27,428 nt of DNA, taken from the IMG/VR virus record IMGVR_UViG_2802429253_000015; one strand, 5' to 3'. This DNA is from a virus (taxonomy: Duplodnaviria; Heunggongvirae; Uroviricota; Caudoviricetes). The stretch's first letter is position 1, and every line of letters begins with the position of its first letter. A program made the translations under genes and the position numbers. Shown here piece by piece: positions 4,710 through 17,558 of the stretch. The notes beneath the pieces were generated by a model that was not told where the DNA came from, searched no databases, and saw only the letters and a program-made list of their open reading frames with translations.

Positions 4710-5759
4710 GTGAGGGTATTAGTGACTCCTGAAATTGCTCACCGCCTGGGGATTGTACTTTTCAGGCCCGGTCCTGATGCGATGCCTTTGTTTATGCAGG
4801 GGCGTGTGCTGGTGGAGCCTGAACCGAAAAGCATGCGCGGGCTGCCGTCCGGAGTTGTTCCTGCCGTTCGCCAGCCGCTGGCGGAGGATAAATCATTACT
4901 GCCATTTTTCAGCGATGAGCGGGTGATTCGTGCTGCCGGCGGCGCTGGTGCACTGTCTGACTGGCTCCTGCGTCATGTTAAATCCTGCCAGTGGCCTCAT
5001 GGTGACTACCATCACAGCGAAACCGTCATACATCGTTACGGTACCGGCGCGATGGTGTTGTGCTGGCACTGCGACAACCAACTGCGTGACCAGACCTCAG
5101 AATCACTTGAGCAACTTGCTCAACAAAACCTGACAGCATGGATGATTGACGTCATCCGTCACGCAATAAGCGGTGCGCAGGAGCGGGAATTATCGCTGGC
5201 TGAATTATCTTGGTGGGCGGTCTGCAATCAGGTGGCGGACGCACTACCGGAGGCAGTATTACGTCGCTCTCTGGGGGTACGAGAGGAAAAAATCCGCTCT
5301 GTGTACCGCGAAAGCGACATCGTACCGGGAGAACAGACAGCCACCAGCATACTGAAGCAGCGCACAAAAAATCTTGCGCCGTTGCCTCACGTCCACCAGC
5401 AACAAATCCCGCCACAGGAAAAGACGGTGGTCAGCATTGCCGTTGATCCAGAGTCTCCGGAATCTTTCATGAAGCTGCCTAAACGTCGCCGCTGGGTTAA
5501 GGAGAAATACACACGTTGGGTTAAGACACAGCCGTGTGCTTGCTGCGGTATGCCAGCCGACGATCCGCATCATCTGATTGGTCACGGTCAGGGTGGAATG
5601 GGTACAAAAGCGCATGACCTCTTTGTGTTGCCTTTGTGCAGAAAGCATCACGACGAGCTGCATGCGGATACCGTGGCATTTGAAAAGAAGTATGGCTCCC
5701 AGCTGGAGCTGATATTTCGTTTTATCGATCGTGCGCTGGCAATTGGCGTATTGGCGTAA
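4710..5759 (+). CDS. ydfU: YdfU-like DUF968 prophage protein (349 aa), GTG start
   Basis: GGAGG 4 nt upstream of GTG 4710. C-terminal cysteine/histidine cluster ...CACCGMPADDPHHLIGHGQGGMGTKAHDLFVLPLCRKHHDELH... typical of the YdfU/DUF968 family found just upstream of Q in Qin-like prophages. Confidence 0.75.
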   Translation: MRVLVTPEIAHRLGIVLFRPGPDAMPLFMQGRVLVEPEPKSMRGLPSGVVPAVRQPLAEDKSLLPFFSDERVIRAAGGAGALSDWLLRHVKSCQWPHGDYHHSETVIHRYGTGAMVLCWHCDNQLRDQTSESLEQLAQQNLTAWMIDVIRHAISGAQERELSLAELSWWAVCNQVADALPEAVLRRSLGVREEKIRSVYRESDIVPGEQTATSILKQRTKNLAPLPHVHQQQIPPQEKTVVSIAVDPESPESFMKLPKRRRWVKEKYTRWVKTQPCACCGMPADDPHHLIGHGQGGMGTKAHDLFVLPLCRKHHDELHADTVAFEKKYGSQLELIFRFIDRALAIGVLA

Positions 5760-5772
5760 GTGGAGAACGAGC

Positions 5773-6525
5773 ATGAACCTTGAAGCCTTACCAAAATATT
5801 ACTCCCCAAAATCGCCAAAATTGAGCGATGACGCACCGGCGACAGGCTCAGGTGGTTTAACGATTACGGATGTGATGGCTGCGCAGGGGATGGTGCAGTC
5901 GAAAGCACCGCTTGGGTTTGCCTTATTCCTGGCAAAAGTTGGTGTTCAGGATCCTCAGTTTGCTATTGAAGGCCTGCTCAATTACGCGATGGCACTGGGT
6001 AACCCGACATTGAACAAATTGAGTGAAGAAACACGGCTGCAGATTATTCCTTATCTCGTGAATTTTGCCTTTGCTGATTATTCTAGGTCTGCGGCAAGTA
6101 AGGCTCGCTGTGAACATTGTGCAGGTACGGGATTTCATAATGTATTGCGCGAAGTGGTGAAACACTACAGAAGTGGGGAATCTGTTATCAAGGAAGAATG
6201 GGGGAAGGAACTATGTCAGCATTGCCATGGTAAGGGCGAAGTCAGCACAGCGTGCAGAGGGTGTAAGGGTAAAGGTATTGTCCTGGATGAAAAAAGAACC
6301 CGGCTTCATGGCGTACCGGTTTATAAGTTTTGTGGGCGTTGTAATGGAAACAGGTTTAGTCGTTTACCGACCACACTGGCACGACGTCATGTCCAGAAGT
6401 TGGTACCGGACCTGACAGATTATCAGTGGTACAAGGGGTATGCGGACGTCATTGATAAACTGGTAACAAAGTGCTGGCAGGAAGAAGCGTATGCAGAAGC
6501 ACAACAGAGAAAAGTGACAAGATAA
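5773..6525 (+). CDS. Q: Late-gene antiterminator Q (phage 82/Qin QuuQ type), 250 aa
   Basis: N-terminus MNLEALPKYYSPKSPKLSDD... and zinc-binding cluster CEHCAGTGFH...CQHCHGKGEVSTACRGCKGKG... match the 82-type Q antiterminator. Sits immediately upstream of the moron and lysis region. Confidence 0.85.
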   Translation: MNLEALPKYYSPKSPKLSDDAPATGSGGLTITDVMAAQGMVQSKAPLGFALFLAKVGVQDPQFAIEGLLNYAMALGNPTLNKLSEETRLQIIPYLVNFAFADYSRSAASKARCEHCAGTGFHNVLREVVKHYRSGESVIKEEWGKELCQHCHGKGEVSTACRGCKGKGIVLDEKRTRLHGVPVYKFCGRCNGNRFSRLPTTLARRHVQKLVPDLTDYQWYKGYADVIDKLVTKCWQEEAYAEAQQRKVTR

Positions 6526-7286
6526 AAGATTTTCACCGAACGATGGCGACATAACGATTGTATTTTCTAAGGAAACGTGCAAAGAGTTTTCCAATGATGA
6601 GCCTTATATGCATACCGGTGGAAAATATCAATAAGCCGCGCAGAGTGGTTTTTTTGTGGACATAAACTTTGTGCAGAACGGTAACCATTCTGGTTGCCGT
6701 GAATGCAGTTTTTTTACATTGCTGGCTTTTTTAGATTTGTGTTAGTCATTGATATTAACAAGAAGGGGAAAAGACATGCTAAAACGGCAGGATATGAAGG
6801 AAACGGTTATGCGTGAATGTTCCAGTGTGATTAACCATATCATCTTGGGAAGCCATCCTGATGCAGGGAAGAGGTAACAGTAACGTGCATCAATCAGGCT
6901 GCAAATAAATGGCTTACGCCGGAAATCTGGCTATCGATGTATTACCGGTTTGTTACCCATGAAGAAAATTAAGGTGATAACGAAACTGATTTTATAGGTG
7001 TCTTGTCAGAGTGTTGCGACGAAACTGGTGTTGGCAGTGTAGGGAAAATAGTAGGATGAAAATTATAAATTGCTTTAAATGAGATTGATTTCCCTCATGT
7101 TATGAGATATTTGTCTTATATTGCTGGTTAATTATGAGAATTTTTGTAAATCTACAGCAATAAAATCCATATTAATTAAAGCACTAGATGCGTTTCTGAT
7201 TTGTGCATGAAACATACATACCATAATGATTAATTGCATCTATAATTACAGATACAGCATTGTGCTGTTAAAAAACTGGAGTCCCC

Positions 7287-7394
7287 ATGAATACATTATA
7301 TGTAAGTGATTCAAATGAAAAAACTCATGACAGGAATAAAAACAATGAGGATAGTAAGGGTAAGGATAATAAAAAAGACAACCGGAAAGAGTAA
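7287..7394 (+). CDS. Possible 35-aa hydrophilic peptide (MNTLYVSDSNEKTHDRNKNNEDSKGKDNKKDNRKE)
   Basis: GGAG 5 nt upstream of the ATG; too short for the ORF track; low-complexity charged sequence. Confidence 0.25.
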   Translation: MNTLYVSDSNEKTHDRNKNNEDSKGKDNKKDNRKE

Positions 7395-7429
7395 ATAATC
7401 TTTCCTGCATAAAAATACTAGGGTGGAAT

Positions 7430-7549
7430 ATGTCAGAACATCCAGATTTTGATGACCGTAAGCCTGATGATGAGCCCGTTGAGCGTCCTGATGAGGGGCA
7501 ACCATTGAACCCTTTTTCACCGGATGATAAAAGAGAACCTATTATTTAG
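7430..7549 (+). CDS. Possible 39-aa acidic proline-rich peptide (MSEHPDFDDRKPDDEPVERPDEGQPLNPFSPDDKREPII)
   Basis: ATG 7430 with an upstream GGGTGG; a strong intrinsic terminator follows about 50 bp after its stop. Confidence 0.3.
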   Translation: MSEHPDFDDRKPDDEPVERPDEGQPLNPFSPDDKREPII

Positions 7550-7602
7550 ATATAGCAGAATATAGCCGTTTAAAGTAGGTTGTGTTTTGTTGCTATCCTT
7601 AA

Positions 7603-7628
7603 GCCACCTCCACAGGAGGTGGTTTTTT
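7603..7628 (+). terminator. Rho-independent terminator
   Basis: Perfect hairpin CCACCTCC-aca-GGAGGTGG followed by TTTTTT. Confidence 0.8.
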
Positions 7629-7685
7629 ACTAATGGAACATTAATTGGTAGATGTGATTGTGTACGACTTATGGGAGGCTTAAGA

Positions 7686-7871
7686 TTATTTTCTGCCAAT
7701 AATAAAACCAAGCGTTAACCCTATGCTTAGAGCGACCACCACGCTAGTCAGTGGATAATTTCTAAATTTATCTTTAACGTTTTCTTTGCCTGCCTGCAAA
7801 GCATCGTCAGCACATGATACATATTTTTTGACAGTATTAACTATTTCGTTTTCAGATTGATTTGAAGTCAT
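7686..7871 (-). CDS. DUF883 (ElaB/YqjD/YgaM)-like C-terminally membrane-anchored small protein, 61 aa
   Basis: AGGA 8 nt upstream of ATG 7871. C-terminus ...PLTSVVVALSIGLTLGFIIGRK resembles the ElaB/YqjD membrane anchor. Shorter than typical family members, so the assignment is tentative. Confidence 0.45.
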   Translation of the reverse strand: MTSNQSENEIVNTVKKYVSCADDALQAGKENVKDKFRNYPLTSVVVALSIGLTLGFIIGRK

Positions 7872-8327
7872 GTTTGAAGTCCTGATGTTAAGTGGCTTTT
7901 TAATTATAGCAGATATGCTTTCAATGATAGGGCGGAGAGCTGTTATTGAGGTGATACTATGACCACTCAATCAACATTACATAAAATGACGTTTACTCCT
8001 GTTTGGCACAGTAGCAGAATTTTGCTTCTGCTACTGAAGTCGCTTTAGCACTAGAATATGCTGATGGATAAAGCAGTTCAGCGTATGTACTGCGTCATGC
8101 ATATCGGTCTTGCAGATATGACGAGAAGGGGAGACAAGGTGTGTGTAATGTAGAAGTCTTTAAAGTGCTGCCTGGGATAACTCTATGCTGAAGTGCAATT
8201 GATAAAAGTAACACGATAAAGGTTTTTCAATGAAGATGGCAACGTGATGCTTGCATTTTTCAAAAAATATGGATAAAATCCCCTCAATGATGGGCTTTGT
8301 ATATCTGATGTTTAGAAAGAAAATTAG

Positions 8328-8352
8328 AAAACCCGCTGATGAGCGGGTTTTG
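8328..8352. terminator. Bidirectional-looking intrinsic terminator (AAACCCGCT-gatg-AGCGGGTTT) downstream of the cspF-like gene
   Basis: GC-rich hairpin flanked by an A-run upstream and a T-run downstream. Confidence 0.6.
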
Positions 8353-8643
8353 TGCTTTAAATGGGGCAATGGTGATGTTGAACCTCATCCCGGGACTCAT
8401 GTCTGTTAACTTATTATTTAGCTGGTGACTTAGTTATTTGCCTGATGTTTAAAATGTTTTCTTCCAGTACAATGTCCCTAAACACAATGAGTCTGCTTAT
8501 TATATTATTAGCAGAGCTATTACGGCCAAAGTACAGCATAAGCTTTTAAAGCCAATCAACCAGTCATCAAGGCAGACGGGGTTATTCATAAAAACTCTCC
8601 ATGTGTGATCCGATGGGGCTTAAAGTAAAAGCTTTAATATAGT

Positions 8644-8856
8644 TCATGAAAGATAAACATTGGCAGCTGAAGGTCCACGTAGACCATTGATTCGGCAAAA
8701 TTCCACGCGTAATCCTGTGGTAATTTCTTCTGCATCGCGGAGATTGAGAGCAGAAACGTGCAGCTGGACATCGATACGGCCATCGGATGGTATGATAAGA
8801 CCTTTGCCGCTTTTGTAGTCAAAGGTTTTGACAATTCCTGTCATTTTACGGGACAA
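8644..8856 (-). CDS. cspF: CspA-family cold-shock protein paralog, CspF/CspH-like (70 aa), probable TTG start
   Basis: Translation [27 protein letters not shown]... has the cold-shock-domain layout and the [14 protein letters not shown]-terminus I recall for CspF. AAGGA sits 7 nt upstream of the TTG at 8856. Confidence 0.8.
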
Positions 8857-9156
8857 AAAAATTCCTTAATACTGATAACTTGGCGCACTATACACACGTT
8901 CCTGAAGAAAGCTATAGTTTTTTGATGGGGTTGAAGATGGCTGGATGTCTAAAATAAACATTGCTTCATATGTTCAACTATGAGTTAATGATTGCGTCGG
9001 TTTGAAGAACAGACGATATACGAAGTAGTTTACTAAAGCAGTTCTCATTTCAGGTGTTATTCACTTATTCCTTCTTTGAGTCTCTCCAATTAAGTACGAA
9101 GTCGTTTCTGTTATACAAACCATTTATGCCGAAAGGCTCAAGTTAAGGAATGTAGA

Positions 9157-9372
9157 ATGTCAAATAAAATGACTGGTTTAGTAAAATGGTTTAACGCTGA
9201 TAAAGGTTTTGGCTTTATTTCTCCTGTTGATGGTAGTAAAGATGTGTTTGTGCATTTTTCTGCGATTCAGAATGATAATTATCGAACCTTATTTGAAGGT
9301 CAAAAGGTTACCTTCTCTGTAGAGAGTGGTGCTAAAGGTCCTGCAGCAGCAAATGTCATCATTAATGATTAA
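9157..9372 (+). CDS. cspB: CspA-family cold-shock protein paralog, CspB/CspI-like (71 aa)
   Basis: Translation [38 protein letters not shown]... carries the canonical RNP1/RNP2 motifs (KGFGFI, VFVHF). Divergent from the cspF-like gene across a ~300-bp intergenic region, as in Qin. Confidence 0.85.
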
Positions 9373-9653
9373 AATTCATAGTTTGTCTGTATACGATAAC
9401 GAAGAAGGCTGATGCCTGAGTGGAGATACAGACAGAGTGGCGAATATTGGATCTCTTTAATAAAGAGTAAGGAGGTCCAATACATGAAACAATGGCCAGC
9501 ATATTTGGTAATAACTTAATCAGGAAAAGTATGCTAACCATTGTGGTGAAGTGCAGGTTTGCTGCATGAATAGTTTTACAGCAGAAGCTAACTGCTGGCA
9601 TAGCAAAACAAAGTGCGTAAGTGGATGACTCTCACAAAAAGCACCACAATATT

Positions 9654-9680
9654 AAACCCGCTCAGGCGGGTTTTTTATTA
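9654..9680. terminator. Intrinsic terminator (AAACCCGC-tcag-GCGGGTTTTTT) between the cspB-like gene and the convergent Zn-ribbon gene
   Basis: Perfect 8-bp GC-rich stem followed by a T-run; the A-rich 5' flank suggests it may work in both directions. Confidence 0.7.
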
Positions 9681-9735
9681 TCTGCTTTAAATATATTATT
9701 AAAATATAAAAAATACTTGTTGCGAATAAAATCAA

Positions 9736-9906
9736 TCAGGCTACAGCTTTAAGATTTGTCTGGAATACTTTGTTGCAATGAGGGCAGATCAAAAGGGCAC
9801 CTTTTTGTACTCTTGAAAAACTGTGTTCTGACTCTTGGGTGCAGTTTGGGCAGGAACATTTAACGAGATAATTACGGCGTGATTTTGAGTCTTTACGTTC
9901 TGACAT
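9736..9906 (-). CDS. Small zinc-ribbon protein (56 aa; CxxC...CxxC), hypothetical
   Basis: MSERKDSKSRRNYLVKCSCPNCTQESEHSFSRVQKGALLICPHCNKVF... has two CxxC pairs. The start is taken at the internal ATG (9906) rather than the longer ORF in the track. Confidence 0.45.
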   Translation of the reverse strand: MSERKDSKSRRNYLVKCSCPNCTQESEHSFSRVQKGALLICPHCNKVFQTNLKAVA

Positions 9907-10125
9907 AGGCTTTTCCTGTATAAATGGCCGTATACAGTACACTAAATATGAAAACATTTCTCTTATTATTAATTAATATATGATTTTCTTTCAAAATAAT
10001 TAACCACATTTTTAATGTGTATGTTTTTTTAGCGCCGTTGAGAACAACGTGTGCTGTAAAAACTACCCCGTAGACTCCGATATTTTCAAACATATTGCAC
10101 CATCCGTGTACATCGGGGTGAGGAT

Positions 10126-10341
10126 ATGAAATCAATGGATAAGTTAACAACAGGTGTTGCGTATGGCACATCGGCGGGTAATGCTGGTTTCTGGGCATTG
10201 CAGTTACTCGATAAAGTAACTCCGTCACAGTGGGCTGCAATCGGTGTGCTGGGTAGCCTGGTTTTTGGCCTGCTGACGTATCTGACAAATCTTTATTTCA
10301 AGATTAAAGAAGACAGGCGTAAGGCCGCGAGAGGAGAGTAA
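10126..10341 (+). CDS. S: Class II holin of phage-21 S21 (pinholin) type with dual-start motif, 71 aa
   Basis: [55 protein letters not shown]... shows two transmembrane segments and the two start codons M1 (antiholin, with extra Lys) and M4 (holin). GGTGAGGA ribosome-binding site. Confidence 0.85.
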
Positions 10342-10345
10342 TCCA

Positions 10346-10897
10346 ATGACTCAAGACTATGAACTGGTTGTGAAAGGAGTCCGTAATTTTGAGCATAAAG
10401 TTACGGTAACTTTAGCCTTACAGGACAAAGAACGCTTTGACGGTGAGATTTTTGAGCTGGATATCACTATGGATCGTGTTGAAGGTGCTGCACTGGAGTT
10501 TTATGAGGCAGCAGCCAGAATGAGAATCAGACAGGTATTCCTGGATGTTGCTGCCGGGTTATGTGAAGGGGATGAGCAGTCGCCGGAAAAGCGCCCCATA
10601 ATTTTAGAGGCGCAGAATGTGTGGATAACCTACAAAGGAAAGCTACCGGGAAGAATTACTGGTTCTCTGAAGACGCCACCGACGGCATTGCGGTCAGAAA
10701 AAGATGATATTGAATCGCTCATTGAAAAACTGGAGGGCAGCGTCGCTGATCTGAATAAAAAATTGTCGGTGCTTATTCCTTCTGAAGATGAAAAAAAACG
10801 CCGCGATGAGCAGTTTGCGGCGTTTTACGATTATTGCATTGAAGTTACTCGCAGGAATTTTGTGAAGATTTTTGAGGAGGGTAAATCTCTTCAGTAA
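10346..10897 (+). CDS. Hypothetical protein (183 aa) inserted between holin and endolysin; N-terminal part resembles the YdfR/DUF1327 family
   Basis: Starts 5 nt after the holin stop. Same position as ydfR in Qin-like prophages but clearly longer. The 3' end overlaps a convergent ORF, so the C-terminal extent is uncertain. Confidence 0.45.
   Translation: MTQDYELVVKGVRNFEHKVTVTLALQDKERFDGEIFELDITMDRVEGAALEFYEAAARMRIRQVFLDVAAGLCEGDEQSPEKRPIILEAQNVWITYKGKLPGRITGSLKTPPTALRSEKDDIESLIEKLEGSVADLNKKLSVLIPSEDEKKRRDEQFAAFYDYCIEVTRRNFVKIFEEGKSLQ

Positions 10898-13877: not shown

Positions 13878-17558
<3,681 letters not shown>

Follow-up and report, generated by a model that had tools for sequence, protein, structure and literature searches.

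What separates the antiterminator gene Q from the lysis genes in a prophage of the Qin kind, and where does its late transcript begin? The DNA considered here, which we call the window, is a stretch of 27,428 nt (IMG/VR record IMGVR_UViG_2802429253_000015) from a lambdoid prophage, in which a hok/sok module, rem, ydfU, Q, an interval of 3,600 bp, the holin gene, a DUF1327 gene, the endolysin gene, Rz/Rz1 and the head and tail genes follow one another in this order. Our subject is the interval, at 6526-10125. Both open reading frame (ORF) boundaries that a preliminary description had assigned to it, the end of Q at 6525 and the start of the holin gene at 10126, are correct, as is its AT-richness, with a G+C content of 37.3% as compared with 53.1% for the rest of the window; our analysis also supports the general view that it is where a lambdoid prophage carries its morons, between Q and S, with the lysis genes lying behind intrinsic terminators. 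The interval is the ordinary, already annotated Q-to-lysis region of a Qin-like Escherichia coli prophage, plus a duplicated late promoter module: the unit composed of the 3' end of Q, the late promoter pR', a sigma pause element and the terminator tR' occurs twice, as copy A at 6468-6657 and as copy B at 8162-8352. The left 1.7 kb of the interval (6526-8161) is specific to this lineage and is bounded by the second, diverged copy of the Q 3' end and late module. At 97-99% identity, the whole stretch of about 4 kb recurs in 40 complete E. coli genomes out of 5,426 and in HannyBb and PhiR63_1, two database records submitted as phage genomes; the prophage lineage includes O121:H19 and O103 strains.

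The gene upstream of the interval (5773-6525, + strand) encodes an antiterminator of the QuuQ/YdfT type, 250 residues long in its annotated form. It is a member of the lambda-Q family: in a Pfam search it matches Antiterm (PF03589) with an E-value of 6.6e-54 and 180 bits, against a cutoff of 26.7, and yields zero matches at E <= 0.01 to PF06323 and PF06530, the accessions of the Q82 and Q21 families (PMC9388147). Phage 82, which had been proposed as a comparator for the late promoter region, is therefore the wrong one. The protein is 94-97% identical to the Q proteins of K-12 (QuuQ, 94%), SfV and 2H10, and 42% identical to lambda Q, relative to which it carries an insertion of 47 residues (approximately residues 113-160) that contains two additional CXXCXGXG motifs (Pfam DnaJ_CXXCXGXG, E 5e-8). 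This insertion sits where the zinc-ribbon 'arm' of lambda Q begins, which in lambda touches the Q-binding element at its distal part; the insertion may alter the way in which the DNA site is read here.

Given the alignment of its promoter and pause element with those of lambda, the late module can be read by homology as a -35 element, a spacer, which in lambda contains the Q-binding element, a -10 element, a start with the pause element, a short leader and tR'. In copy B, the core on the + strand (8251-8294), which is probably the working pR', has the form TTGCAT-17-TAAAAT-6-AATGATGGG, an architecture that it shares with 82 of the 86 related loci introduced below. It consists of the -35 element TTGCAT at 8251-8256, the spacer TTTTCAAAAAATATGGA at 8257-8273, which is conserved among the relatives and is our candidate for the Q-binding element, the -10 element TAAAAT at 8274-8279, followed by CCCCTC, and the pause element AATGAT with the adjoining GGG at 8286-8294, the predicted start of transcription being 8286. 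Likewise, lambda pR', TTGACT-17-TAAATT-6-AACGATGGG, matches the TTGCAT-17-TA(A/G)(G/A)AT-6-AACGATGGG of the relatives. In lambda, AACGAT at +1 to +6 is the sigma-70-dependent pause element, and the GGG next to it acts as a discriminator-like sequence (PMC4005639). The combination of a sigma-70 promoter and a pause element that marks a lambda-Q-type cassette is thus present in copy B and missing from copy A. Shortly after the pause site of copy B follows an intrinsic terminator, tR'(B), a hairpin at 8328-8352 that would end a leader RNA of about 66 nt (8286-8352, +), a length close to that in the relatives. The hairpin is bidirectional (-17.2 kcal/mol on the + and -14.0 kcal/mol on the - strand) and on the - strand also terminates the cspF-ynfS transcript. 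Matches to other Rfam families in the region stay below threshold, such as an RsmY-like one over 8230-8351 (22.8 bits, the gathering score being 57), and we treat them as chance hits driven by the terminator.

The core of copy B is preceded by a relic of Q itself, the decayed last 19 or so codons of the gene at 8162-8218 (+), which are interrupted by a stop codon in frame and end in the former TAA at 8216-8218. Together with the start of the module the relic forms a direct repeat, 8162-8259, of the segment 6468-6566 at the end of the intact gene (74% identity over 99 nt, E 2e-12), and MAFFT carries the alignment on to the hairpins. The segment of 2H10, SfV and K-12 Qin that comprises the final 58 nt or so of Q and about 130 nt beyond it aligns to 8162-8352, a position away from the window's own Q. 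In the comparison with Qin, which the preliminary description had suggested for the post-Q segment, 6468-6657 aligns less well than 8162-8352.

The same description could not confidently identify a late promoter or qut element in 6526-6780. This segment does hold a pR'-like module (6558-6657, +), detected by regular-expression search and alignment, but a degenerate one, the canonical copy being that at 8251-8352. Its -35 element TTGTAT (6558-6563) starts 33 nt after the Q stop codon and is followed by the spacer TTTCTAAGGAAACGTGC (6564-6580), the sequence AAAGAG in the -10 position (6581-6586), with TTTTCC after it, a pause-like AATGAT that runs into GAG (AATGATGAG, 6593-6601), and a weak hairpin with a U7 tract (6633-6657). 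Copy A is collinear with the entire post-Q segment of SfV, including a second hairpin, a ribosome-binding site and the first 10 or so codons of a phrog_331 gene, with homology stopping near 6806. An inverted repeat directly after the Q stop codon (TCGCC-N6-GGCGA; in lambda TTGCCA-N4-TGGCAA) was considered as a conserved structure and discarded, for the left arm shows no changes that would compensate for the variation of the right arm in the relatives.

To place the two copies within the range of natural variation we compared 86 loci, namely 80 viral contigs from IMG/VR whose Q is 96-98% identical, together with reference loci, with Q 94-98% identical overall; as all are close relatives, the counts stand for a few lineages rather than for 86 independent events. 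A single B-type module begins 32 nt after the Q stop codon in 82 of them, with a near-invariant spacer, TTTTCAAAAAAT(A/C/T)TGG(A/T), and a -10 element that reads TAAGAT, TAGGAT or TAAAAT. Measured from the predicted start through the last T of the tract, the leader is 63-65 nt long in nearly all related loci and is closed by at least seven different stem sequences; a fixed length combined with varied stems argues for selection on the hairpin and on its distance from the start. The A-type core has a far narrower distribution. A motif scan finds it in the window, in three further contigs (L001, L007 and L011) and in PhiR63_1 only, each time with a B-type core 1.69-1.73 kb downstream, and HannyBb carries the whole interval, A and B included, at 97% full-length identity. 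Among the 5,426 E. coli genomes, the A segment is present at 95% identity or above in the same 40 and reaches at most 80% in all others, and its spacer finds no related genome among 185,579 species representatives, only 11 chance hits in unrelated taxa. A copy A that serves as the sole late module was sought in the 80 IMG/VR loci and the 5,426 E. coli genomes, and no A was found that lacks a B downstream.

The divergence of the two copies is complementary. Measured against a consensus of 46 distinct related modules, the 44 nt from the -35 to the pause element differ at 15 positions in copy A and at 6 in copy B, the largest value among the others being 6. At the Q 3' end, where 5 initial gap columns of the alignment were left out for A and B, it is copy A that differs at only 6 positions and copy B at 14, with 7 as the largest value among the others. 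Thus, the coding end of Q survives in A, whereas the promoter, the spacer, the pause element and the terminator survive in B. We infer from these comparisons that copy B would be the working late promoter and Q-loading site, and copy A a relic. As an observation apart, one contig of the sample (L080, IMGVR_UViG_2565956633_000004) is a natural hybrid, in which at 5751-5905 the Qin-type post-Q promoter is fused exactly at AACGATGGG to the lambda 6S leader (GTTAATTCGCTCGTTGTGG...), a junction that makes the pause element a recombination joint between late modules of the lambda and Qin types.

Could the promoter nonetheless lie where the preliminary description had looked for it, directly after Q? 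The late promoter and qut element would then be those of copy A (6558-6600), five + strand terminators would have to be crossed, and copy B would be a redundant loading site or itself a relic. In every related locus pR' sits 32-33 nt past the Q stop codon, as it does in copy A, which has also kept an AATGAT, a leader of 63 nt and the U7 tract. Yet the -10 hexamer has 2/6 consensus matches and no final T, the CAAAAAA block of the spacer, retained in 82 of the 86 relatives, is lost, GAG stands in place of GGG behind the pause element, the core departs from consensus more than twice as far as that of any other module, and the hairpin is weak (-7.8 kcal/mol, z-score -1.6). Nor do the Q proteins encoded beside an A-type module differ by any residue that we could find from those beside B-only modules, and so there is no sign of a DNA specificity shifted to suit the spacer of copy A. 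As A moreover was not found without B, we regard a late promoter in copy A as rather unlikely.

Several points count against assigning this role to copy B. Its -35 element matches only 3/6 positions and a generic promoter scan did not list it, and copy A has retained the usual position of pR' after the Q stop codon, with the AATGAT, the leader geometry and the U7 tract just mentioned, so that it may have a weak, non-canonical function. Furthermore, that copy B acts as a promoter, causes pausing, binds Q and allows read-through is in each case deduced from homology, and the spacer is named as the Q-binding element by analogy with lambda. On balance we nevertheless consider it likely that a lambdoid prophage of the Qin kind here carries cargo between Q and S under control of the lambda type, with a late transcript that starts from copy B near 8286.

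How would the region then operate? Polymerase would start constitutively at about 8286 and pause at AATGAT. Without Q, it would terminate at 8328-8352 and release a short leader RNA of about 66 nt, of the kind of lambda 6S RNA or the StxS precursor. With Q bound at the spacer element, a termination-resistant polymerase would cross tR'(B), run for about 800 nt antisense to ynfS and cspF and then pass in sense through cspB, before crossing the terminator at 9654-9680 and proceeding, antisense to ynfU, into the genes for the holin, the endolysin, Rz/Rz1 and the structural proteins. Unmodified polymerase that leaks past tR'(B) meets a long untranslated stretch, which is a likely substrate for Rho.

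We folded the hairpins and compared each with 200 shuffled sequences, and for none of the three that had been named before was any shuffle as good (+ strand; 7601-7628, -17.3 kcal/mol; 8328-8352, -17.2 kcal/mol; 9654-9680, -15.5 kcal/mol). Two further + strand hairpins with U tracts, just past Q at 6633-6657 and 6672-6715, had been missed, making five on this strand in all. The second of these is strong (-20.1 kcal/mol, 0 of 200 shuffles as good), is followed by U7 and corresponds by homology to the DNA that comes after tR' in SfV, mEp460 and Ayreon. Terminator-like sites are enriched in the region as a whole, with 14 between 5500 and 11500 as against 4.6 +/- 1.9 in shuffled sequences. The hairpin at 7601-7628 closes a unit of small ORFs and acts on the + strand only, having no T tract on the other, and that at 9654-9680 is bidirectional (-15.5 kcal/mol on +, -15.4 kcal/mol on -), stands between the convergent cspB and ynfU and forms the last strong barrier before the holin gene. 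The view that late transcription must read through terminators would hold for tR'(B) and 9654-9680, but not for 7601-7628, which lies upstream of the start if copy B is the working one. A start at copy B makes the hairpins at 6633-6715 and 7601-7628 irrelevant to late read-through, so that two strong terminators remain; the upstream hairpins may instead serve as insulators, halting read-through of the early operon past Q and closing small moron units.

Whether lysis depends on Q as strictly as the preliminary description had it is a related matter. The promoter of cspB, which is strong, cold-inducible and Q-independent, and its thermoregulatory leader lie downstream of tR'(B), one terminator away from the holin gene, and an AT-rich site at 9973-10000 matches a promoter at 9/12 positions, so that transcripts from either could in principle leak into the holin gene. 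The intervening terminator at 9654-9680, however, is a strong one, with 8 base pairs and a U6 tail; we found nothing convincing as a promoter beside the holin gene, matches like that at 9973-10000 occurring at chance rate (14 found, 14.5 expected); and unchecked holin expression would presumably kill the lysogen. Leakage of this kind is in our view highly improbable, and a strict Q dependence of lysis is plausible.

The genes of the right part of the interval are those of K-12 Qin. Divergent cspF-like and cspB-like genes had been recognized there before, as had a zinc-ribbon gene, and all three can now be named. On the - strand, ynfS (8500-8589) encodes a protein of 29 residues (Pfam YnfS, E 5e-23) that is identical to its K-12 counterpart at 29/29 positions, and cspF (8644-8856; CSD, E 3e-21) matches K-12 CspF at 68/70. 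On the + strand, cspB occupies 8996-9372 including a 5' untranslated region of the thermoregulatory cspA type, with its coding sequence at 9157-9372 (CSD, E 1e-31; 69/71 identical to K-12 CspB), and the cspA thermoregulator of Rfam, RF01766, is matched at 8996-9388 (+) with 155.3 bits against a gathering score of 78. The zinc-ribbon gene is ynfU (9736-9906, -; Pfam YnfU, E 5e-31), whose 56-residue product is identical to that of K-12 at 55/56 positions; a promoter scan places a promoter-like site for it, TTGAAA-18-AATAAT, at 9994-9965. Between the end of cspB and its terminator an untranslated stretch of about 280 nt (9373-9653, +) is also found in K-12 Qin; its segment at about 9400-9550 folds better than mononucleotide shuffles (z-score about -4.4). 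The first late gene, at 10126-10341 (+), codes for a class II holin of the P21 type (Pfam Phage_holin_2_1, E 4e-34) that is identical to K-12 EssQ at 71/71 positions. The earlier expectation that the csp morons would also be expressed during late transcription applies to one of them: cspB alone lies in sense, and cspF, like ynfS and ynfU, is antisense to late transcription and so cannot be expressed from the late transcript. The analogy with the cargo of Shiga toxin (Stx) phages, in which stx and/or tRNA genes occupy the space between pR' and S, does not extend to the genes themselves, as a tRNA search found none and the ORFs and annotation of this part comprise only csp and ynf genes.

The Qin-type cspF-cspB-ynfU cluster between Q and the holin gene has the same gene order and orientation as in K-12, where the sequence runs quuQ(ydfT)-ynfS-cspF-cspB-ynfU-essQ; the right 1.9 kb of the interval (8162-10125) is orthologous, with proteins 97-100% identical (Q 94%), and the post-Q module of promoter, pause element and terminator is the same, as is the cspB terminator. 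The DNA from 8162 on is much more widespread than the whole stretch. K-12 Qin differs in that only one late module is present, immediately behind Q, and in a Q-holin distance of 1,903 bp instead of 3,600 bp, the window containing an extra 1.7 kb (copy A, small ORFs, the gene for a membrane protein of 61 residues, an rha fragment and the Q relic) ahead of the canonical module. It also differs in that the prophage of the window still carries its structural genes. This last difference bears on the question whether the window, too, is a cryptic remnant, in which neither module drives late transcription and the region merely carries csp, ynf and small genes that the host expresses. Such a state would fit the orthology of the right part with a cryptic prophage and the debris in the insert, namely the rha fragment, the Q relic and a truncated phrog_331 ORF. 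It fits poorly with the presence of intact genes for Q, the holin, the endolysin and Rz/Rz1 and of a complete complement of head and tail ORFs, with a copy B that stays inside the variation range of related modules, and with PhiR63_1 and HannyBb, both deposited as phage genomes, in which A, insert and B have the same layout and whose sequences are about 97% identical over 72% of the compared window segment 1-25000. We therefore think it quite unlikely.

What lies between the two copies? The 1.7-kb insert is a mosaic of the usual sort, made of moron units and the debris of recombination. A 33-codon ORF at 6776-6877 (+) agrees in its ribosome-binding site and first 10 or so codons with the phrog_331 gene located after the late leader of SfV and Ayreon; it is probably what truncation has left of that gene. 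About 400 nt devoid of ORFs separate it from two small hydrophilic ORFs of 35 and 39 codons (7287-7394 and 7430-7549, together 7287-7549, +), each with a ribosome-binding site. Neither these two nor the ORF at 6776-6877 matches a Pfam or PHROG family. With a perfect TATAAT at 7241-7246, ORFs rich in D, E, K, N and P, and the strong terminator, the segment 7241-7628 (+), which is unannotated in RefSeq, is a candidate for a self-contained moron unit. On the - strand, the gene at 7686-7871 encodes a small tail-anchored protein of 61 residues that belongs to phrog_11629 (PHROG, E 4e-45), is a hypothetical protein in RefSeq and has only 5 relatives among 1.8 billion representative proteins. Its previous label as DUF883-like, which would place it with the tail-anchored proteins of the ElaB/YqjD kind, is unproven, for the DUF883_C match is weak and sub-threshold (E 0.13; 12.4 bits, the cutoff being 27); its three remote homologues P0004-P0006 have the same family as their top match, likewise sub-threshold (E 0.005-0.2). 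The remainder, 7959-8150 (+), is a frameshifted 5' fragment of about 60 codons from a gene of the rha family. Within this debris, at 8009-8036, lies a perfect 11-bp inverted repeat, CAGTAGCAGAA-N6-TTCTGCTACTG (z-score about -5 on both strands, no T tract after it). The intact rha of PhiR26_1 lacks the repeat, which indicates that it arose by substitutions and a 1-nt deletion in the copy of the window; as it lies upstream of the gene for the 61-residue protein (- strand), it could be an operator or an RNA stem.

Outside the interval, two neighbours deserve mention. Upstream, a sok antitoxin RNA at 2648-2818 (+; Rfam, 103 bits against a gathering score of 59) identifies a hokD/sok type I toxin-antitoxin system ahead of rem-ydfU-Q, as in Qin. 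Downstream of the holin gene, the DUF1327 (YdfR-like) gene at 10346-10897 (+) encodes 183 residues that match phrog_2091 over its full length, compared with a gene of 312 nt in K-12 and in strain FHI_NMBU_03; the protein of the window is the longer one at its C-terminal end.

Our comparison suggests a scenario, put forward tentatively and at somewhat less than an even chance, in which the late module was duplicated by recombination and the copies underwent complementary decay, so that the sole working Q-loading site moved 1.7 kb away from Q, and the old site became a promoter-less relic of pause element and terminator that insulates a pocket of morons between Q and pR', a place for cargo that has not been described in lambdoid phages. 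In an alternative form, the relic in copy A would still load Q weakly, resulting in a two-tier late programme. For annotation, the late promoter of the present lineage should be placed at about 8251-8291 and not beside Q, the antiterminator should be taken as one of the lambda type and not of the phage 82 type, and only cspB can ride the late transcript. The kind of system is textbook matter and its right half is annotated in K-12, and in this sense the locus is already known; our literature search turned up no description of a duplicated late module with complementary decay. We regard it as a small worked example of the entry of cargo by recombination at the late leader, followed by complementary decay, and no new mechanism is implied.

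How does the locus compare with the systems that are best understood? With the cassette of lambda, composed of Q, pR', qut and tR' and giving rise to the 6S RNA, it shares the Q family PF03589 and the sequence of -35 element, 17-nt spacer, -10 element, 6 nt, AACGAT or AATGAT with GGG, and a terminator downstream (PMC4005639, PMC9388147). It departs from lambda in its leader of about 65 nt, as compared with 194 nt, in the DnaJ-like zinc-finger insertion of 47 residues in the 'arm' of Q, in the absence of the -35-like TTGACT that lambda has beside the pause element, and in the duplication of the module. With the late region of Stx phages (pR'-tR'-stx, StxS) it has in common that cargo is inserted between Q/pR' and the lysis genes, and the Stx2c phages share the B-type module at about 77% identity; the window, however, is without stx and tRNA genes, and most of its cargo lies on the strand opposite to late transcription. 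In lysogens a short terminated leader RNA made constitutively would be expected in both, the one of the Stx phages being the precursor of the small RNA StxS (PMC7547250). Closest in Q type and post-Q module, which are the same, are SfV, mEp460 and Ayreon. They differ in that their module next to Q is the canonical one and only the terminator is duplicated, and in their cargo, which consists of a methylase and other genes and includes no csp. In Ayreon (L006), the tR' hairpin and the sequence after it are found twice, at 1302-1345 and 1981-2019, around about 650 bp of inserted ORFs, and in mEp460 and the Stx2c phages the two matching segments are about 850 bp apart, as at 15402-15587 and 16254-16417 of LC727876. 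Repetition of late-leader pieces around cargo, and with it insertion at the conserved late leader, seems to recur in phages with this type of Q.

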